NCBI GenBank assembly: GCA_052389275.1
Contig: JBQTID010000074.1
Coordinates: 1 to 57,296, forward strand
DNA from: Gemmatimonadota bacterium
GTDB lineage: Bacteria; Gemmatimonadota; Gemmatimonadetes; Longimicrobiales; RSA9
DNA length: 57,296 bases
Direction of reading: 5' to 3'
Within the stretch, counting starts at the first letter, position 1. Each line of letters starts with the position of its first letter. The position numbers were made by a program, and so were the translations under genes. Shown here in pieces: positions 388 through 57,296 of the stretch. The notes below the pieces were generated by a model that was not told the origin of the DNA, did not search any database, and saw only the letters and a list, made by a program, of their open reading frames with translations.

Positions 388-1326
388 TCAGCTCGCTTGC
401 GATTCCTTGTATAGATCGCGATAGGACTCGTAGCGCGCGCGCGACAACGAGCCGGCCGCCACTGCATCACGTATCGCGCAGTCCGGCTCGTGGATGTGCG
501 TGCACGACGTCGTGAATTTGCAATCGCCGATCAGCGCGCGAAATTCCGGAAAGCAGATGTCGAGGCTGTCCGGATTGATCTCGAACAGACCCACTTCGCG
601 AATGCCGGGCGTGTCCACGATGTAGCCGCCGCACGCAAGCGGAATCAGCTGCGCCGCGACCGTCGTGTGCCTGCCCTTCACGACCGCATCGGAAATCTCA
701 GCGGTCCGCAGCTCGATGCCGGGCTCCAGCAGATTGAGCATGCTCGACTTGCCGACACCGGACGGACCGGTGAGCACGCTCTCACGACCGCACACACGCG
801 CGCTCAGCTCGGCGACCGCAACGTTCTCCTTGACGCTCGTGAACAATACTTCATAACCGGCAGCGATATAGTCGCGAAACAGCTCGCGCGCGCCGTCCGC
901 AGCGATGAGATCGAGCTTGTTGACTACGATGAGCGACGGCAGGTCGTTGGCTTCGGCGAGCACGAGGAAACGGTCGATCATGCGCAGCCTGGGCTCGGGG
1001 CGCGCGGCGGCAACCATGATGACAACCTGATCGACGTTTGCAACCACTATCTTGGCGCGCTGATGCTCGCCACGCCCGGGCGCGCGGCGAGCCAGCTCGC
1101 TCTTGCGCGCGGCAACCTCTTCGATCGCGTAGCTGCGATCTTCATCGTGCAGCTCGACTCGCACGCGGTCACCTGCAACAACGCGGTCGCCTGTCCGCTG
1201 CTCGAGCTTCAGACGACCGCGTAGCGCGGCATCAACCTGCTGATTTGTGTCGAGAAGGATCCGGTAAATGCCACCGGTTCCCCATAGAACGATGCCGTTG
1301 AAGTGGGAGATCGCGGCGCGGGGCAT
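388..1326 (-). CDS. rsgA: Ribosome small subunit-dependent GTPase A
   Basis: Circularly permuted GTPase motifs NKLD, GPSGVGKSS, GRHTT, DTPG; C-terminal zinc site CKFTTSCTHIHEPDC. Confidence 0.95.
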   Translation of the reverse strand: MPRAAISHFNGIVLWGTGGIYRILLDTNQQVDAALRGRLKLEQRTGDRVVAGDRVRVELHDEDRSYAIEEVAARKSELARRAPGRGEHQRAKIVVANVDQVVIMVAAARPEPRLRMIDRFLVLAEANDLPSLIVVNKLDLIAADGARELFRDYIAAGYEVLFTSVKENVAVAELSARVCGRESVLTGPSGVGKSSMLNLLEPGIELRTAEISDAVVKGRHTTVAAQLIPLACGGYIVDTPGIREVGLFEINPDSLDICFPEFRALIGDCKFTTSCTHIHEPDCAIRDAVAAGSLSRARYESYRDLYKESQAS

Positions 1327-1374
1327 TATTGGGCGTGCCGCCTCCGGGCGTCACGCTTGCAAGTGAAGGGCGCC

Positions 1375-2292
1375 TTAGGCCGCGAAGCTTTCGAGTGCAT
1401 CTCCGAGATCGCCTTCGCGCAGCCGCTTGAGCGCCCGATCGCGCAGCTGCCGCACACGCTCGCGCGTGACACCGAGCATGTTGCCGATCTCCTCCAGCGT
1501 ATGCTCGCGGCCGGCTTCCAGGCCGAAATACAGCCGCAGCACGCGCGCATCGCGCGGCGTAAGCGTGTCGAGCGCGCGCTCGATCTGCTCGGCGAGCAGG
1601 CGCTCCTCGACCAGGATCTCCGGCTCGAAAGCTTCCTCGACGATGAACCGCTCGACCAGTTGGCTGTCATCACTGTCGCCGATCGGCGCGTCGAGTCGGA
1701 TCTCCGCCGCATTCAGTGTCTGGAGTGATTCCACGATTTCCGGCGTCAGCTTCGCCGCTTGCGCGACTTCCTCCGTACTCGGATCGCGCCGCAGCTCCTG
1801 CTTCAAGCGCTCCCGCTCGCGGAAGATGCGGGCAAGATCGCTCGCCCGATTCAAAGGCACTCTTACCGCGCGACCCTGATTCGCCAGCGCTGAAAGAATC
1901 GCCTGCCGAATCCACCACACCGCATACGAAATGAATTTGACGCCCTGCTCGGGATCGAATTTGCGCGCAGCCGTGACCAGCCCGACGTTGCCCTCCTGGA
2001 TCAGGTCCGTGAGCGAAACGCCGCGGTTCTGGTATTTCTTCGCGACACTGATGACGAAACGCAGATTCGAGCGTACCAGCTTGTTGATCGCGTCTTCGTC
2101 ACCTTTTTGCGCACGCCGCCCCAGCTCGATCTCATCCTGAACCGTGAGCAGCTTGTGGCGGCTCACTTCCTTCAGGTATTGATCGAGCGCGGTATAGTCC
2201 TCAGCAGCACCGAGGAAATCCTCGAAGCCGTCGGACTTGCGACGCCGCTTCTTGCGGCTATCCAGTGCCGTTCTCACGATCGGAGTGTCCAA
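1375..2292 (-). CDS. RpoD/SigA-family sigma factor lacking region 1.1
   Basis: NLRFVISVAKKY, DLIQEGNVGL, KFISYAVWWIRQ, TLEEIG..VTRERVRQ. Confidence 0.93.
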   Translation of the reverse strand: MDTPIVRTALDSRKKRRRKSDGFEDFLGAAEDYTALDQYLKEVSRHKLLTVQDEIELGRRAQKGDEDAINKLVRSNLRFVISVAKKYQNRGVSLTDLIQEGNVGLVTAARKFDPEQGVKFISYAVWWIRQAILSALANQGRAVRVPLNRASDLARIFRERERLKQELRRDPSTEEVAQAAKLTPEIVESLQTLNAAEIRLDAPIGDSDDSQLVERFIVEEAFEPEILVEERLLAEQIERALDTLTPRDARVLRLYFGLEAGREHTLEEIGNMLGVTRERVRQLRDRALKRLREGDLGDALESFAA

Positions 2293-49980: not shown

Positions 49981-50076
49981 GCCTGACGTACTAAAGATCA
50001 GTTGCGCGGCGCCACCCAGACGATAGGTGCATCAGCAGGCGAGCGGCGCGTCAACTGCATCCGATTGATATCAGGC
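49981..50076 (-). repeat. attC site (degenerate R boxes)
   Basis: GCCTGAC..GATCAGTTGCGCG..CGCGTCAACTGCATC; similar to the attC at 53759. Confidence 0.6.
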
Positions 50077-50123
50077 TGGCAGCCGCATTAGCCGCCGCTG
50101 TGCGAATCAGATTCATTGTCGGA

Positions 50124-50240
50124 CTATTTTCTCGCGAATTTCAGGTGAACCACGTTCGGCGCCGCGACCGTATCGACCAGGACGAGGTCGTGCAGGTCGG
50201 CGACGTTGTCAAACAGGCGCTCGCCCCCACCTGCGATATC
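50124..50240 (-). pseudogene. Dihydrofolate reductase-like (RibD C-terminal) fragment
   Basis: IAGGGERLFDNV..AAPNVVHLKFARK*. Confidence 0.5.
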
Positions 50241-50329
50241 AAAGTCGGAGGCCGACACGACAACGCGCACACCGCGGTTCGTCTAACGGATGTAACGCTT
50301 CCGAACTATCGTCCATCGGCGAAAAGGAC

Positions 50330-50512
50330 GCGAGGCATGATTGGATGGTAGAGTAGGCTGGTTTTTGCAGCATAACGCGAAGGGCGAGAGCCTCGACATG
50401 TGCTTTGGCCTCGTCATGAGACAATCCATTAGGCAAGCACGCCCGGCAGATCCGGCACTTCCGCGATCCAGCGCCCGTCGGCTTCTTGGTCGAGTTCAAT
50501 GAGGAAGGTCAT
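50330..50512 (-). pseudogene. hicB: HicB-family antitoxin remnant
   Basis: MTFLIELDQEADGRWIAEVPDLPGVLA, then a stop/frameshift, then GLSHDEAKAHVEALALRV. Confidence 0.75.
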
Positions 50513-50518
50513 AATCGG

Positions 50519-50623
50519 ATTCTAACGACAGATAAGCTGCACAGCGCGGCGAAATCAATGAATGCAGTGGTGAGATGCGCGCTTTGCCAGCTTCATCCGA
50601 TTGCCAGCTTCACCTGTTAGAAT
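50519..50623 (-). repeat. attC site
   Basis: ATTCTAAC..GATAAGCTGCACAGCGCG..CGCGCTTTGCCAGCTTCATC..GTTAGAAT, with an internal duplication. Confidence 0.75.
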
Positions 50624-50791
50624 GCCGCGCACATGCATTGTCAAAACTCCGGGGCGCAACTCACGGTAGTACAGTCGAACAATCCCGACCTTTAGCCTCC
50701 GGCGCGCACGAGCCAGTTACGCGCATCGGATAGCCGCACCGCTCGCCTTGAAGTCAGCGTTTGCTCCGGTGCAGCGCAGTGCTGCGCGTTC

Positions 50792-51205
50792 TCACGGAGC
50801 CGGATCCGGTGACCACAGCTCTAACAGATTCCCGTCGGGATCATAAAAGTAGTAGGCGTCCGCCTCCATCCAGCGAAGGCGGACCGGCCCGTAGACCTGG
50901 ATGGCATGGCTCCGTACCCGCGCGACCGCTTCCTCCAGCCGGTCGGGCGGAACGTGCAACGCGTAATGGACCTGCCCCCAGCGCTTGTCCGGCGGATTGG
51001 GCGAGTGCTCCTCAAAGAAGAGAGAGCCGGCGTGCACGGCGATTCGCTGCGGCGCCTCCGCCGGCCCCATGCGAAACCACGCCCACTCGTCGGTGACTTC
51101 CGTCTCCCGGTCGAGGCCGACGACGTCCTGATAGAACGCGGCTGCGGCTTTCACATTTTTTACCATCAGGACGATCTCGGAAATGCCTCTGACTGCTGCA
51201 GTCAT
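50792..51205 (-). CDS. VOC/glyoxalase family protein
   Basis: AGGAG RBS, ISEIVL.V..AAAFY..VVGL, HYAL, YFYDPDGNLLEL. Confidence 0.88.
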   Translation of the reverse strand: MTAAVRGISEIVLMVKNVKAAAAFYQDVVGLDRETEVTDEWAWFRMGPAEAPQRIAVHAGSLFFEEHSPNPPDKRWGQVHYALHVPPDRLEEAVARVRSHAIQVYGPVRLRWMEADAYYFYDPDGNLLELWSPDPAP

Positions 51206-51645
51206 GGTTCTCCTCTCCCCGCGGTGGCGGACATCACAGCGTCCGGCGTGCGGCTGAAATCCGGCGCAGCTAATTCGGCGTAAATCTCAAGAACGTTGCC
51301 TTCGGGGTCGCGGAAGAAAATCGTCCGATGGCCAGAGGAGCGATCTTCGAGAGCTTCCAGCATCTCCACGCCCTTCGCCGCAAGATCCCCGTAGCAGGGC
51401 TCCACTTGGTCAGGGGCGACACGGAAGGCGAGTTGGACACCAGCTATCTGAGCAGAGAGTGGCCCGTCGTACGGACGGCCTCGTGGCCGCAGGGCGAGCA
51501 GGGTTGCGCCGACCCGAAACTCGACCCACTCGCCCCAATCTCGATAGACTTGGAAGCCCATTACGTCTTGGTAGAAGCTTCTCGTGGCCTGCAGGTCGCG
51601 GCAGAGAAGCACGACGTAATCGAGATTGCGAATGGCGCGGAGCAT
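51202..51645 (-). CDS. VOC/glyoxalase family protein
   Basis: LDYVVLLC.DL..TRSFY, QLAFRV, FFRDPEGNVLEI. Confidence 0.88.
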   Translation of the reverse strand: MLRAIRNLDYVVLLCRDLQATRSFYQDVMGFQVYRDWGEWVEFRVGATLLALRPRGRPYDGPLSAQIAGVQLAFRVAPDQVEPCYGDLAAKGVEMLEALEDRSSGHRTIFFRDPEGNVLEIYAELAAPDFSRTPDAVMSATAGRGEP

Positions 51646-51835
51646 AACAGTCTCCAAGAGAGAAAGTTGGCGCGTCAGCTCCAAGCCTCGCCGGTCTGCG
51701 AGAGCCGAGCAGCATTACGACGAGCCGGCCGCTTCCGACAGAACGCGCCGCCAGCTGCAAACGCCCGTCAGGCTACAGACGTCGGTGATGCCGGATACGC
51801 CGCCGAGACCCGTCATACTGAGCACTTGCATAGCG

Positions 51836-52417
51836 CTACCACGTACTCGCTTCCAGCGCGGCCAAGACTTGGTTGACCGGCGGATGATCGCCGGCGACAG
51901 TACTCAGGTAGCTGTACGGGACGCGCCCATCTGGGAGCACCACCACTATGCCGCCTAGCTGCCAGGCATCGCCCTGGGTCCCCGGAACGAGTGCCGGCAC
52001 CGACCAGTACCACCAGCGCAAAATTACTTGCACGCGTTTTTGAAGGACGCCGTCTCGGAGCGCGCGGAGCATCTTCGCCCATGTGCGCCAAGACGCAAGG
52101 GTACGCGCGATGCCGTGCTTCATTCCCAGCGCGCGGTACGATGCGCGCGTAGTGTCAACGTAGAGCGGCGTGTCGAGGCGGAGATCCTCGCGAAACGCCT
52201 CCGCGAAGTGCTCCGTCCCGATAACGACCAGCTCCGCTCCGTGGGCGTGGATGCTGTCGACTTCGCGGCGCAACTGCGCCACCTGCTCGCGGCAGAACAG
52301 TCAGGCGAAGTGCCGGACGAAGGCGAGCACTGCCGGCTGCTCCGCCCAGGTCTCTCTGAGCTCGTGCTCCTGCCCGTCGAGGCCCTCGATCTTCGAGCGC
52401 GCCGCTTCGTCGGACAT
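51836..52417 (-). CDS. Peroxiredoxin-like (AhpC/TSA-2, SelU/FAM213-like) probable selenoprotein with UxxC motif
   Basis: ATG 52417 reads in frame through TGA 52301-52303: VLAFVRHFA-U-LFCREQVAQL; downstream QGD.WQLGG and GDHPP motifs. Confidence 0.8.
52265..52282 (-). promoter_or_regulatory. Candidate bacterial SECIS hairpin
   Basis: GTGGCGC-AGTT-GCGCCGC; the loop starts 25 nt after the in-frame TGA and has G at loop position 2. Confidence 0.5.
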
Positions 52418-52482
52418 CAGATCTATTGGGCACCTCATAGCGAGTAGAGGTCGCGCAGCGCGACTGGGCATACAGGTGTGCA

Positions 52483-52542
<60 letters not shown>

Positions 52543-52719
52543 CGCTGCTGATTCGACAATTTCTCAGCGGCTCAGCAATGTCAGAAAAACGTCCAACTGC
52601 GATTCCCAGTAGATCGCGTTACTGGGAATCGCATGCGGATTGGCCAGCGTATGCTCGGTCACCAGGATGTATTCGGCCTTGCCTCCCCGTCCCGCAAGGC
52701 CTTCAGAATGCTTTGGCGG

Positions 52720-52994
52720 CCGGCCATTGCCGTCATGTGCTCGTGCAGGCGGCCTGGAGCTGTCGTCACAAACCGCGCGTGGGTGAGGCGCTCAAGAAGC
52801 GGCAGCTAGGACAGCCGGCACGCGTGATCACGCACGCGTGGAAAGCGCAGCACCGGCTGCGCAAGCTCTATCAGCACCTCTCTTATCGAAAGGCACCCCA
52901 AATCGCTGCGGTCGCCGTCGCGCGCGAGCTGGTGGGCTTTCTCTGGGCCGTCATGCGTGACGTCGAGCTGTTACGCGAACCTGCTGCACCCTGA
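52720..52994 (+). pseudogene. IS110-family transposase C-terminal remnant
   Basis: HCRHVLVQAAW..HAWKAQHRL..IAAVAVARELVGFLWA. Confidence 0.8.
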
Positions 52995-53087
52995 AGTAAC
53001 GTAATTAGGGTAACCTGCGCGGCGTCACGCGGAACAAGACTTCACGAGTGAATTGCACGCCGCGACAGGTTCACCCGATTGTTAGCC
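52994..53087 (-). repeat. attC site
   Basis: AAGTAAC..GGGTAACCTGCGCGGCGT..ACGCCGCG-A-CAGGTT-C-ACCC..GTTAGCC, with two extrahelical bases. Confidence 0.85.
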
Positions 53088-53093
53088 TGCCGA

Positions 53094-53465
53094 CTAACTT
53101 GCCTGCTTGAGAGGTTTTAGCCGCGCGATTTCCGATGCTTCTTTGGACCGCATTGCGTGCCAGAGGTCGTAATCCTGCTGCAGCCCCAGCCAGAAATCAG
53201 CGCTCATCCCCGTCACTTGCGCCAGACGAAGTGCAGTGTCCGGCGTTACGCTGCGCTTGCCATTAACGATCTCATTCAAACGAGGAAACGACACTCCAAG
53301 CCTTTCCGCGAACGCGGACTGAGTAATTCCAAGGGGCTTAAGGAACTCCTCGAGCAACATTTCGCCAGGGTGGGTCGGCGCGCGATCAGAAGGAAGCCGC
53401 CGTTCAACTAAAGCTTTTTTCGCCCTAGTGGTAGTCTGTGATTTCGACTTCGTCGGCATAGCCAT
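53094..53465 (-). CDS. higA: HigA-family antitoxin
   Basis: THPGEMLLEEFL.PLG.TQ..LNEIVNGKR.VTPDTALRL..FWL.LQ. Confidence 0.92.
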   Translation of the reverse strand: MAMPTKSKSQTTTRAKKALVERRLPSDRAPTHPGEMLLEEFLKPLGITQSAFAERLGVSFPRLNEIVNGKRSVTPDTALRLAQVTGMSADFWLGLQQDYDLWHAMRSKEASEIARLKPLKQAS

Positions 53466-53718
53466 CCTCCCAACTGAAACAAATCCGGAATTGATCGTTA
53501 ATTCGGATACTGTATTGACCTTTCCTGCGGCCGCGGAGCTGCTCGAGCCGGTTACCAGGAGGAATTCTAAGCTCCTGGAGCCGACGTACGCGATTCAGCT
53601 GGTCGAGTTTCCGCCGAGCCGCGGGCCAGATCTCCTGTGGACACGTGTCCCTCGCCCTCCGACTGTCGGCGCCGTCAAAGATGTCCTGCGTCCCGCCATC
53701 CGCGAAAGATCTTACCAC
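53425..53718 (-). CDS. higB: HigB-family (RelE fold) toxin
   Basis: SFAD..T..IFDG, ARRKLD.L, PPGNRLE.L.G.R.GQYSIRINDQFRICF.W..VEITDYH. Confidence 0.92.
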   Translation of the reverse strand: MVRSFADGGTQDIFDGADSRRARDTCPQEIWPAARRKLDQLNRVRRLQELRIPPGNRLEQLRGRRKGQYSIRINDQFRICFSWEDGYADEVEITDYH

Positions 53719-53725
53719 GGAAAAT

Positions 53726-53754
53726 ATTATAGCGTGTGCCGTTATACATTACAA
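53726..53754 (-). promoter_or_regulatory. Cassette-internal sigma70 promoter/operator of higBA
   Basis: TTGTAA-N17-TATAAT with overlapping palindrome TATAACG-N5-CGCTATA; GTG start lies 7 nt after the -10. Confidence 0.75.
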
Positions 53755-53758
53755 GGCA

Positions 53759-53854
53759 GGCTAACGGATCAAGGGTCAGTTGCGAGGCGCCAACAGAGAA
53801 CCGGCGTTCCACGAGTCACTTACGCGCCTCGTCAACTGCATCCGGTTGTTAGAT
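53759..53854 (-). repeat. attC site
   Basis: GGCTAAC..GGGTCAGTTGCGAGGCGC..GCGCCTCG-T-CAACTG-C-ATCC..GTTAGAT. Confidence 0.9.
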
Positions 53855-53871
53855 CACATGCCGACGAAGCA

Positions 53872-54177
53872 CTATGCTGAACGAGCCGGCCGCTTTCGAC
53901 GCGCCTTTGTAGCAGGCTTGGTGATCGCACTCGCAATATCGTTCTTCGAAGCACCTGCGGCGAGCAACCCGCGGATCAGCAAGTCGATTGATACCGAAGG
54001 GTCACTGGCTTCCATCTTCGCGACACGAGACTGACTGGATCCGAGACGCTGCGCGAGTTCGATCTGCGACAGACCGTGCTCGGCGCGTACATCTTTCAGC
54101 TCCGAGCTCAAAGCGAGTTTCAACTCGACGAACTCTATTTGCTCCGGCGACAATCCGAGGAACTCCGTTCCTGGCAC
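53872..54177 (-). CDS. XRE/HTH antitoxin (N-terminus probably deleted)
   Basis: EFLGLSPE..VELKLAL, LSQ.ELA.RLGSSQSRVAKMEA.DPSVS.DLL. Confidence 0.8.
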   Translation of the reverse strand: MPGTEFLGLSPEQIEFVELKLALSSELKDVRAEHGLSQIELAQRLGSSQSRVAKMEASDPSVSIDLLIRGLLAAGASKNDIASAITKPATKARRKRPARSA

Positions 54178-54420
54178 GCTTCAATTACCGCTTTCAGGGT
54201 CTGCTGGGTCTTCTTACTGAAGACTTCCAGAATGACGACGGCATCCGGATCCAGTCGATATACAAATCCGCCAAGTCGCGTCCTCGTCCTGAATACGGAG
54301 CTCATGGCACCGCCGTCCGATGCTCGGCATGGGCGCGAATGAGGTAACTCCGGCTTATCCCCGCGTTGCAGCCGGCGAAGCAGGACGCCTGCCTCTACAC
54401 GAGCGGCCTGTTTGAGAGCG
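54165..54420 (-). pseudogene. RelE/Gp49-like toxin remnant
   Basis: ARVEAGVLLRRLQRG..PHSR / PSIGRRCHELRI.D / YRLD.DAVVILEVFSKKT, across frameshifts. Confidence 0.75.
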
Positions 54421-54440
54421 CAGGACGAATTGGCGATGTG

Positions 54441-54526
54441 ATCTAACGTTCAAGCGTAAGCTGCGCGGCCCATGCTGCTCTCTCTAGATCCTCACAGCAA
54501 TCCGCGCCAGCTTCACGCGTTTAGAC
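54441..54526 (-). repeat. attC site (R'' side shortened)
   Basis: ATCTAAC..GCGTAAGCTGCGCGG..CCGCG-C-CAGCTT-C-ACGC-GTTTAGAC. Confidence 0.8.
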
Positions 54527-54540
54527 AGTGAGTTACGGAT

Positions 54541-54846
54541 CTAGATCGGAGGTCCGCTAAACTCCTGCGACGTGTGGATGAGCGCTACAATCCAAACTTT
54601 GTCTTCACCACGAGGTAGACCAACCAATACGGTGCCAGGATCCAGTTCTCGAAATTGTGGGTCATCAAGGTCCGGAACAGTGCGACCGCGGTCCGGCAAT
54701 TCTGCCAGGGAAGCCGAGGCACCGAGGATGCGTTCGAGTTGCTTTGCTGCAGCGAGGCGGGAGTCGGCGGCGATAAATGAGATTGCCTCATCCAAGTCCG
54801 CCTGCGCGAGTCTGGTCCAAACTAGTCTGAAATGCCGAGCAACCAC
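54541..54846 (-). CDS. ParE/RelE-family toxin (possible compensating frameshifts near the C-terminus)
   Basis: LVWT..A.ADL.E..FIA.DS..L.ELP.RGR.VP..FREL; the expected ILAPYWLVY segment is in another frame. Confidence 0.75.
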   Translation of the reverse strand: MVARHFRLVWTRLAQADLDEAISFIAADSRLAAAKQLERILGASASLAELPDRGRTVPDLDDPQFRELDPGTVLVGLPRGEDKVWIVALIHTSQEFSGPPI

Positions 54847-55028
54847 TTATCGCGCAAACGGCGAGCGACTTCCTCGTGGGAGATCGTGCGGCCCGCTTCG
54901 ACGTCCGCCAATCCCTGATCGATCTTATCTAGGACGTATAGGTGATATTGCACGTCCTCAAGCGTGCAATCATCAGGAAGGCGGTCAAGCAGCTCGCGGA
55001 CACGTGCTTTGGTATTCATGTCGTTCAA
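54822..55028 (-). CDS. Putative antitoxin upstream of the ParE toxin
   Basis: LLDRLPDDCTLEDVQYHLYV..KI..GLADVEAGRT.SHEEV. Confidence 0.75.
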   Translation of the reverse strand: MNDMNTKARVRELLDRLPDDCTLEDVQYHLYVLDKIDQGLADVEAGRTISHEEVARRLRDKWLLGISD

Positions 55029-55073
55029 TATCGCGATTCTCGATCAGAGAGTACCGCGAAGGTCTTGCTCGCC

Positions 55074-55176
55074 GTCTAACGGATCTGCGCGTCAGCCGCG
55101 AGGAATCGCGCGGCATGCACGTACAAGTGACAATATTTTGACGCGGTTCCTCGTCGGCTGCACGCGCGAGTTAGAC
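55074..55176 (-). repeat. attC site
   Basis: GTCTAAC..CGCGTCAGCCGCGAGGAATCGCG..CGCGGTTCCTCG-T-CGGCTG-C-ACGCG..GTTAGAC. Confidence 0.9.
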
Positions 55177-55193
55177 GGCGCGGTAACTGCGCC

Positions 55194-55388
55194 TTACCTT
55201 TGCGACAGCGTTTTCGCACTGACAAGCCTTAACCCGGTGATCAGCAGTGGTATCGCGACAACAAGGAGGGCTGGGCTGACGTTGCGACCAGCAGCCGACT
55301 TGAAAATGTAAAGAGCGACCGAAACGATCGAAATTCCAAGACACACCCAGCCAAATACTCTCGCCCATCTAGCCTTTTCCGCATTCAT
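55194..55388 (-). CDS. Small two-TM membrane protein (gene cassette)
   Basis: AAGGAGG RBS; bounded by complementary cores GTTAGACGGCGC and GCGCCGTCTAAC. Confidence 0.7.
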   Translation of the reverse strand: MNAEKARWARVFGWVCLGISIVSVALYIFKSAAGRNVSPALLVVAIPLLITGLRLVSAKTLSQR

Positions 55389-55422
55389 TTCGCCTCCTTC
55401 CAGTTTAGAGGATCTTAGCGCC

Positions 55423-55516
55423 GTCTAACGTTAACGCGGGTAAGCTGCGCGGCCATGCTACCGAGGTCAAGCTTCACATTATCCGCGCCAGCTTCACCTG
55501 ATGCGCTTTGTTAGAC
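55423..55516 (-). repeat. attC site
   Basis: GTCTAAC..GGGTAAGCTGCGCGG..CCGCG-C-CAGCTT-C-ACCT..GTTAGAC. Confidence 0.85.
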
Positions 55517-55695
55517 AGCACCAGGAACGAGATCGCGCGTCGGTAGCGTAGGCGAGCAAGACCACGGCGCGCGCGGCCACGAACGTGCGGAGTATAAAGC
55601 TCACGCGAGTGAGCACCATAGCAAGTTGCCGGTGAGGTGCGCGATCAGTGCGCTGCGGCGAGACCGATCAGCCCGACAAAACCCGACGACGAATT

Positions 55696-55821
55696 GTCGA
55701 ACGCCAAATCTACAGGCGGAGCCGAGTAGCGCACGGCACGTCTTGCACCAAGCCGTTAAGGGTCCGCGCGTTATCGTGCGCGGGCAACGTGCGACGTTTC
55801 GCATCACAAATGGTGTTAGGC
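55696..55821 (-). repeat. Probable degenerate attC site
   Basis: GTCGAAC..GTTAGGC; the R'' box contains the brnA stop codon; weak internal pairing. Confidence 0.5.
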
Positions 55822-56067
55822 CGAACGTTTCTTAGCCTTCGAACCTGCACGCTTTGCAAGCGACGCAAGACCTCGAAGAGCTTCATTCACAGACTCTGAG
55901 GTGGGAAAAAGCCTGCTGAGATCAGGGTCAATCACGACGACGTTCGAGCCCTTGGCGTAGCGTTTGGCGGTCACGCCGCGAACCCCTTGCGAGAAGTCAT
56001 ACTCGGGCCGCATGGTGTCGCGATCGGGATCCAACTTTTTGCGTGGACTATTCTTTCTCGTAGCCAT
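55816..56067 (-). CDS. BrnA-like antitoxin
   Basis: MRPEYDFS.GVRG..Y..VV.IDPD....FPTSESVNEALR. Confidence 0.8.
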   Translation of the reverse strand: MATRKNSPRKKLDPDRDTMRPEYDFSQGVRGVTAKRYAKGSNVVVIDPDLSRLFPTSESVNEALRGLASLAKRAGSKAKKRSA

Positions 56068-56326
56068 TTCGTTCGCGCCTGGTTGCCTTTCGAGCGCTGA
56101 TGATTCGAGTTCGTTCTCCGCGTTCCGCGTACGCGACAACGAGAAGATGTTGTTGTTGCGACATTCCGAGAACCAGGTATCGCTCCTCTGCCTCTGAATG
56201 TTCCGGGTCTGCGAGGTTTATAGCGAGCGGATCACCGAAGACGGTTGCGGCCTCTTCAAATGATTCACCGTGCTTTCGGATATTCGCCGCCGCATTGGCC
56301 GCATCCAATTCAAACCGGTAGGCCAC
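56048..56326 (-). CDS. brnT: BrnT-family toxin
   Basis: NIRKHG.SFEEAATVF.DP..D.EHS..E.R..LG.S..RIISARKAT..E. Confidence 0.88.
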   Translation of the reverse strand: MAYRFELDAANAAANIRKHGESFEEAATVFGDPLAINLADPEHSEAEERYLVLGMSQQQHLLVVAYAERGERTRIISARKATRRERNGYEKE

Positions 56327-56401
56327 ACGGACAAATTAGTCGATCATCGCGTCCACGCGACAGGTTAATAGCGGGAAGCAGTCGATTCCAGTTCAGAAGT
56401 G

Positions 56402-56488
56402 GCCTAACGGATCGGAGCTAAGCTGCGCGGCCCATGTGCCGAGGTCAATCCTCGCGTCGTACGCGCCAGCTTCAGCTCTTTGTTAAGC
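56402..56488 (-). repeat. attC site
   Basis: Minus strand GCTTAAC-AAAGA-GCTGAAGC..GCTTAGC-TCCGATCC-GTTAGGC; the upstream gene's TAA lies in R''. Confidence 0.92.
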
Positions 56489-57074: not shown

Positions 57075-57296
57075 GCCTAACGCATGTTGAGAGCACGCCC
57101 CTTGGTGCTACCATGGAGTTGTCAAAGACCTATGGACGCAGCCAAGGAGCGGCTCTCATGAAACGGACTACCAAGTATGTCGCGTTGGACGTGCATCAGG
57201 CAACCACGGTGACCTCGGTGCGCGAGCCGGGCGGTCGGGTCATCGCGCGGACCATCCTGCCGACCGAAGCGGCGGTGCTCGTGGAGTATTTCCAAA
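57075..57296 (+). mobile_element. IS110/IS1111-type element, left end, apparently inserted in an attC site
   Basis: The attC core GCCTAAC (57075-81) is followed by a non-attC 75-bp end with an extended -10 (TGCTACCAT) and an AAGGAG RBS, then the transposase. Confidence 0.7.
57158..57296 (+). CDS. IS110-family transposase (DEDD RuvC-like N-terminus), truncated by the window edge
   Basis: MKRTTKYVALDVHQATTVTSVREPGGRVIARTILPTEA. Confidence 0.8.
   Translation, partial: MKRTTKYVALDVHQATTVTSVREPGGRVIARTILPTEAAVLVEYFQ

Follow-up and report, generated by a model that had tools for sequence, protein, structure and literature searches.

Can a gene whose product depends on selenocysteine (Sec) travel as an integron cassette? 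The question is raised by a minus-strand gene that begins shortly after an attC site and whose reading frame is divided by a single TGA, placed where its homologs have the first cysteine of a redox motif. The window, by which we mean the whole stretch of DNA that was analysed, is a contig of 57,296 nt from the draft genome of a Gemmatimonadota bacterium (3.59 Mb in 292 contigs, 95.7% complete, with an estimated contamination of 3.2%). We consider it likely that the gene is intact, that it encodes a Sec-dependent, peroxiredoxin-like protein with a thioredoxin fold belonging to the known "Prx-like / SelL-related" family, and that it was horizontally acquired as an integron cassette. The parts of this reading are not equally firm, and they are taken up in turn below, from the codon and its RNA context to the protein, the attC array and the genome that would have to decode the gene.

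The reading frame and its TGA codon

The features on which the coding reading depends are the following.

51836..52417, minus strand: predicted selenoprotein gene, from ATG 52417 to TAG 51838-51836, 193 aa
52301..52303, minus strand: in-frame TGA, predicted to be read as selenocysteine, position 1 of the U-x-x-C motif
52265..52282, minus strand: bacterial SECIS-type hairpin within the coding sequence, stem 52282-52276 with 52271-52265, loop AGUU 52275-52272

A preliminary description of this locus had proposed that the frame runs from ATG 52417 through one TGA and that this TGA occupies the first Cys position of a redox motif. Both points are borne out: the minus-strand ORFs 52301..52471 and 51836..52282 share a common frame that is split by TGA 52303-52301 alone, and the read-through peptide is ...AVLAFVRHFA-U-LFC-REQVAQLR..., with the Cys of the homologs aligned at U and the codon of the resolving Cys, TGC, at 52294-52292 of the minus strand. 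Further in-frame ATGs are found at 52438 and 52471, and the codon with which full-length homologs start is an ATA in the window copy, three codons 5' of ATG 52417. The automatic start, GTG 52282, is base 1 of the SECIS-type stem, and the resulting call is a fragment of 148 aa.

The frame of the window copy is otherwise open and nearly all of the conserved residues are kept in alignment with the homologs, in which the same copy is seen to be without the GN of a near-invariant IGNG motif. This site is covered by two contigs from other runs (X2 and X3), and both have an extra CCGTTT (plus strand) at window 52217/52218 that restores the GN of IGNG, so that the deletion in the window either marks a strain difference or arose as a slip in assembly. 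One contig of run X1, which may be the source sample, covers the stretch from the R' box of the upstream attC through the TGA with one difference, which does not fall at the TGA.

A protein search gave 62 database relatives, 14 of which cover at least 82% of the query; the remaining 48, the window's own 148-aa call included, cover 48-77%. In an alignment of 22 relatives the short ones start at or just after the motif and the full-length ones read RHFGC-x-x-C, and Cys stands in the TGA-aligned column in all 14 homologs that span it. That standard annotation misses the gene, as had been claimed, is therefore true of the family at large, most database relatives being about 150 aa long and starting just 3' of the TGA.

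For the codon itself, 80 homologous loci were taken from genome records of Myxococcota, Acidobacteriota, Gemmatimonadota and others, at 36-79% protein identity. A pattern scan of these loci found TGA at the same codon in 76 and Cys in three (L051, L066 and L079), and had no match in one (L060). With identities of this range across several phyla, the 80 loci are not one clone. A metagenome scan with a single protein yielded two short partial loci, with 38-39 residues matched, and added nothing. The search for homologs with Cys or TGA at this site, which had been put forward as a check, thus came out with TGA in the large majority.

A covarying hairpin downstream of the TGA

The preliminary description had also pointed to a SECIS-like stem-loop 18 nt after the TGA, and this element is not only located but conserved and covarying. 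After a spacer of 18 nt (52300-52283) a 7-bp stem with a small, G-containing apical loop lies inside the ORF. In an alignment of 77 sequences pairing in the hairpin reaches 95.6%, both sides have changed in five of the seven pairs (52 cells), and none of 500 shuffles matches this; in a control in which the partner was slid by 1-3 columns, pairing was only 12-57%. All seven pairs are kept in 64 of the 76 Sec loci, and the AGTT loop in 71 of them, against just 1-3 of the seven pairs in the four Cys forms. The stem changes also alter the protein (VA..RR, VA..RD, AV..HR), a sign that selection acts on the RNA. The evidence for a predicted SECIS element is comparative and does not come from the window's own fold: folding 81 nt around the TGA as a single sequence gave nothing distinctive (z = -0.04), and covariation over the homologs was used instead.

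The encoded protein

The assignment to the peroxiredoxin-like FAM213/SelU proteins, likewise made in the preliminary description, holds on two counts, the Pfam family and the closest known structure. The protein matches AhpC-TSA_2 (PF13911) with 60.6 bits against a cut-off of 27, and also AhpC-TSA and Redoxin; PF13911 presumably holds the proteins named FAM213, PRXL2 and SelU. The match to NCBIfam NF040769, "SelL-related redox protein", is borderline, with 122.4 bits against a cut-off of 120 when C replaces U, and the six-frame score, in which the TGA does not count as a residue, is 107.9, under the cut-off. An AlphaFold2 model (pLDDT 85.4) has the thioredoxin/peroxiredoxin fold and places U57 between a strand (47-51) and a helix (58-69), at the N-terminus of the latter. 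The best PDB match by sequence is human prostamide/PGF synthase (E 6e-10), which is also the best match by structure in Foldseek (E 3e-11; TM to target 0.79-0.88), at 20-23% identity, followed by PrxQ/Bcp, AhpE and ResA.

The window clade and its closest relatives have in addition a segment of about 20 residues (KRVQVILRWWYW...LVPG; KRVQ...LVPG) at residues ~143-165, corresponding to window ~51977-52045. This segment is absent from more distant members, and in the model it contains a helix (147-161) of lower pLDDT.

We infer as follows how the protein would be made and how it would work. The host SelB with Sec-tRNA(Sec) would bind the hairpin within the coding sequence, so that Sec is inserted and translation does not terminate, and the active site would then be U-x-x-C, with the UGA-encoded selenocysteine in first place. 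An oxidised substrate, which may be a disulfide, a peroxide or an endoperoxide, would be attacked by the selenolate, the resulting intermediate would be resolved by Cys60, and reduction by a thioredoxin-type partner would return the enzyme to its starting state.

Publications on Prx-like/SelL selenoproteins go back to about 2004-2005. The available passages of PMC1088965 describe bacterial Prx-like selenoproteins as a family whose motif is a thioredoxin-like UXXC, and a table in the available part of a 2026 review (PMC13188914) has the entry "Prx-like thiol:disulfide oxidoreductase, UxxC/UxxU", predicted with high confidence. Since both sources describe Prx-like UxxC selenoproteins, the family is already known.

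The attC array

The gene lies within an array of integron cassettes, of which the following features were located.

49981..56488, minus strand: integron cassette array with nine attC sites, cassette genes all on the minus strand
56402-56488, minus strand: attC
55423-55516, minus strand: attC
55074-55176, minus strand: attC
54441-54526, minus strand: attC
53759-53854, minus strand: attC
52994-53087, minus strand: attC
52483..52542, minus strand: 60-nt attC with R' box GTTACGC at 52489-52483, which opens the selenoprotein unit
50520..50622, minus strand: next downstream attC, 70.3 bits over 50520-50609, a site of the model's own training set
49981-50093, minus strand: attC

The attCs of the array are repeats with the architecture R''-L''...L'-R'. 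A strict R''/R' pattern scan of the window recovered only three of them, together with unrelated hairpins, and a covariance model was used instead. This model was built from eight sites of the array, whose alignment has compensatory changes in 14 of 24 consensus pairs, and it is biased to its own attC type. The ninth site, 52483-52542, was held out of the model and scores 31.1 bits (E 9.4e-07), and its DNA is more stably folded than shuffled versions (z = -3.0). The core of this site (52498-52534) has a depth of 66-103 in contigs from three public runs, against about 3 for its flanks; the high core depth and the several different flanks make it a repeated, shared attC type. Its R' box (GTTACGC, 52489-52483) lies 65 nt 5' of ATG 52417, in keeping with the earlier statement that the gene begins about 65 bp after an attC.

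The Pfam content of the array cassettes comprises SnoaL-like, ParE, HTH, HigB/HigA and VOC proteins. Toxin-antitoxin cassettes or parts of them, of a kind usual for chromosomal integrons, are found at 53094-53718, 53872-54177 and 54541-54846 (HigB with an HTH antitoxin, a lone HTH protein and ParE). The same genome also encodes, on another contig (C163, 3.1 kb), an integron integrase that scores 415 bits with TIGR02249, whose cut-off is 265:

C163 (L096) 724-1698, plus strand: integron integrase, TIGR02249
C163 2751-2871 and 3071-3122, plus strand: attC sites, one with 37.1 bits and of the array type, the other cut by the contig end

On C163 the integrase is co-oriented with its cassettes, an "inverted" layout, and the first of these cassettes is a toxin-antitoxin pair.

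Limits of the cassette and traces of rearrangement

Three further features define what lies on either side of the gene.

51202..51684, minus strand: first glyoxalase/VOC-fold gene (PF00903, E 7e-15), about 150 nt after the stop of the selenoprotein gene
50792..51205, minus strand: second glyoxalase/VOC-fold gene (PF00903, E 7e-12), its start overlapping the stop of the first by 4 nt
52725..52999, plus strand: IS110-family remnant, 3' part of the transposase only, between attCs 52994-53087 and 52483-52542

Bounded by attCs, the unit spans 52488 to 50526 (about 1.96 kb) and comprises both VOC genes besides the selenoprotein gene. In the 146-nt spacer that separates the selenoprotein gene from the first VOC gene the model, with its filters off, finds no attC, and the spacer folds no better than shuffles (z = +1.1). 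By strict definition, therefore, this is not a one-gene cassette. In formal terms, moreover, the attC at 52483-52542 is the end of the cassette before it, one that the IS has broken. The description of the gene as an integron cassette stands, with a correction: the attC array is real and an integrase is present in the genome, but the gene has no attC of its own, belongs to a three-gene unit, and follows an attC that closes another cassette.

Two short repeats were observed in the spacer. A 15-nt motif at 51669-51683 resembles the L'' half only of the array attCs (repeat family D9), and 20 nt at 51720-51739 are 95% identical to the DNA just before attC 53759-53854 (repeat family D20); judged from this resemblance, D9 and D20 may be relics of a lost attC. 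A 69-nt attC candidate at 50654-50722, whose R'' box exactly complements the start of the unit, was dropped, with no match to the model and a fold z of +0.93.

The IS110 remnant just upstream implies that the region has been rearranged. At the DNA level it matches, with 86% identity, the 3' end of a gene on contig C201 whose product has 377 aa and the domains PF02371 and PF01548. Pfam gave no match for the remnant or for a 46-aa ORF at the contig end, and BLASTP of this ORF against the C201 transposase gave none either; the remnant and the ORF were both identified via longer paralogs in the same genome. The ORF (57158-57296, plus strand) corresponds to codons 1-46 of a transposase gene of the IS110 family and has an attC R' box, GTTAGGC, beside it at ~57075; an identical copy ends contig C265, and a paralog that is 82% identical, with IS110 Pfam domains, is found on C286. 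The repeated copy at the contig end explains the assembly break there. The end of the remnant at 52725-52999, for its part, abuts the R' box of attC 52994-53087. IS1111-attC is a group of attC-targeting IS110 elements, and the copies in this genome look like attC-targeting elements of the IS110/IS1111 type.

These traces lend some force to the one alternative that keeps the selenoprotein and gives up its mobility, namely that the gene is a fossil in a decaying array, fused to the VOC genes after the loss of its attC, no longer a mobile cassette and by now like any other chromosomal DNA. The missing attC and the spacer without a stable fold, the half-motif at 51669-51683, which fits a truncated attC, the IS110 remnant, the shifted start codon and the two-residue deletion of the window copy would all agree with such a history. 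The three-gene unit, however, still lies between two well-formed attCs (31 and 70 bits), and the upstream attC belongs to a type that the same metagenome contains in large number and in varied settings. In principle, IntI is able to excise whatever lies between a pair of attCs. We regard the fossil as unlikely, though as the alternative to be taken most seriously, and we retain acquisition as a cassette as the preferred reading.

Probable acquisition and possible circulation

A close homolog (E <= 1e-10) is absent from the 100 relatives of the host that were searched, and the family model has a full-length match in just one other relative (G093), also with a TGA. In many relatives (for example G050:C241, G006:C80 and G045:C159) positions 1-100 of NF040769 find short matches of thioredoxin fold, each with one in-frame TGA; these are probably other UxxC-type selenoproteins of the lineage.

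The four closest homologs, 66-79% identical, come from records of Gemmatimonadota, Solibacteraceae and Vicinamibacteria, and their neighbours are unrelated: GNAT and DUF2784 in one, MOSC and RRM in another, globin and a P450 fragment in a third, and DUF1801 and MOSC in the last. Beyond the gene itself their flanks neither align to the window nor share an attC. Weak attC-like matches (E 1e-3 to 1e-5) occur near the homologs at L016 (22.8 bits) and L018 (26.5), both among the four closest, and at L020 (24.7), and a loose scan placed one attC-like site after the gene in L017. In five genomes that carry homologs, SelA is present in all five and an integron integrase above the cut-off in four. These contexts fit recurrent carriage on cassettes, as far as weak attC-like matches and a model biased to the window's array can suggest it.

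Taken together, the selenoprotein gene most likely arrived as a horizontally transferred cassette, a movement that we infer from its sporadic distribution and its position in the array. Because a bacterial SECIS lies within the coding sequence, the gene would be self-contained as a cassette, and it would function here only since the host lineage already has the selenocysteine machinery. Whether the clade as a whole behaves in this way is a wider claim, and a more tentative one: that it circulates as cassettes across phyla, among Sec-competent soil Acidobacteriota, Gemmatimonadota and the host lineage, is a possibility to which we give slightly less than even weight.

A host predicted to decode the gene

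The preliminary description had made its reading depend on Sec genes in the genome, and all four were found. The tRNA-Sec (selC) scores 72.3 bits against a cut-off of 47, SelA is present, divided over two contig ends, and SelB and SelD are present as well, SelB presumably being the protein that binds the hairpin. The host selD (contig C172:517-1443, L012) has an in-frame TGA of its own, and SelD is on this ground probably itself a selenoprotein. Of the genomes searched, 57 of 60 from the host's family have SelA, as do all 20 from a second family of the order, as against 0 of 20 from a third; these tallies include the unpublished genomes G017, G018, G021, G048 and G062.

In a draft of 292 contigs with some estimated contamination, and with the Sec genes on contigs other than the window, one may ask whether the window was binned wrongly and stems from an organism without Sec machinery, in which the UGA would terminate translation. 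A core gene of 914 aa on the window contig speaks against this: its identity is 86% and 73% to the copies in the two genomes of the host's genus, drops to about 60% across the family and reaches 52-54% in the neighbouring family. Such a gradient of kinship places the contig in the Sec-competent lineage, whose family has SelA in nearly all genomes searched, and makes a binning artefact very improbable.

Close to refuted is the idea that the TGA is a nonsense mutation of a Cys codon in a pseudogene: TGA is one base from TGC and TGT, Cys forms of the family exist and the window copy has a small in-frame deletion, but 76 of the 80 loci, which span many lineages, share the TGA, their protein identity of 36-79% excludes one recent clone, a covarying hairpin is present only with the TGA, the frame is otherwise open with its conserved residues nearly all kept, and the genome has Sec machinery. 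The preliminary description had named homologs that never have TGA, together with donor and host lineages lacking Sec machinery, as what would speak for such a mutation; the homologs do carry TGA, and the host genome does have the machinery. A Sec-dependent protein encoded by an intact gene thus remains the preferred reading.

Novelty and implications

Taken singly, the family, the SECIS and the integron are all familiar; what is new is their combination only, and this is not a new kind of system. Only the integron context of a selenoprotein gene appears to be undescribed. In the literature searched, which did not extend to subscription journals and supplements, no selenoprotein gene in an integron cassette was found, and the available passages of the literature on selenocysteine and attC gene cassettes mention only selenocysteine lyase. 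Surveys of cassettes use standard gene calling, which cuts at UGA, so that selenoproteins would be invisible in their catalogues.

Integrons may, then, move genes that work only in hosts that read UGA as selenocysteine. A cassette that needs selABCD would be a clear case of a function depending on the translation system of the recipient, and it would offer a concrete vehicle for the patchy, horizontal spread of a selenoprotein family. If cassettes of this clade do circulate, the cassette pool would hold a hidden selenoproteome, cut at UGA by gene callers, and the usefulness of such a cassette would depend on the recipient having selABCD. The UGA with its hairpin 18 nt downstream, conserved across phyla, also constitutes a compact natural test object for the breadth of SECIS recognition by SelB.

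Comparison with known systems

With the published Prx-like UxxC family and NF040769 the protein shares the thioredoxin/peroxiredoxin fold, Sec as the first residue of UxxC, a SECIS directly 3' of the UGA and the existence of Cys homologs. It differs, as compared with the available parts of the published descriptions, in the extra ~20 residues of the window clade; a location in integrons is not mentioned in the available passages of PMC1088965 and PMC13188914. The PRXL2/FAM213/SelU proteins, represented by human prostamide/PGF synthase (PDB 9us9 and 9usa, the entry title naming a C44S/C47S mutant), belong to the same Pfam family and have the redox motif in the same place. The eukaryotic enzyme, however, has a prostaglandin endoperoxide as its substrate, a compound that a soil bacterium is not expected to contain.

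With sedentary chromosomal integrons the array has in common small, same-strand, mostly promoterless-looking genes between structurally conserved attCs, toxin-antitoxin cassettes, an integrase in the genome and, in the selenoprotein gene, a start shortly after the R' box. In class 1 integrons integrase and cassettes are divergent, whereas the integrase on C163 points the same way as its cassettes. The unit described here departs from usual cassettes in having no attC directly after the selenoprotein gene and in comprising three genes over ~1.96 kb. It departs from them also in that the function of its selenoprotein would depend on selABCD, and thus on the translation system of the host.
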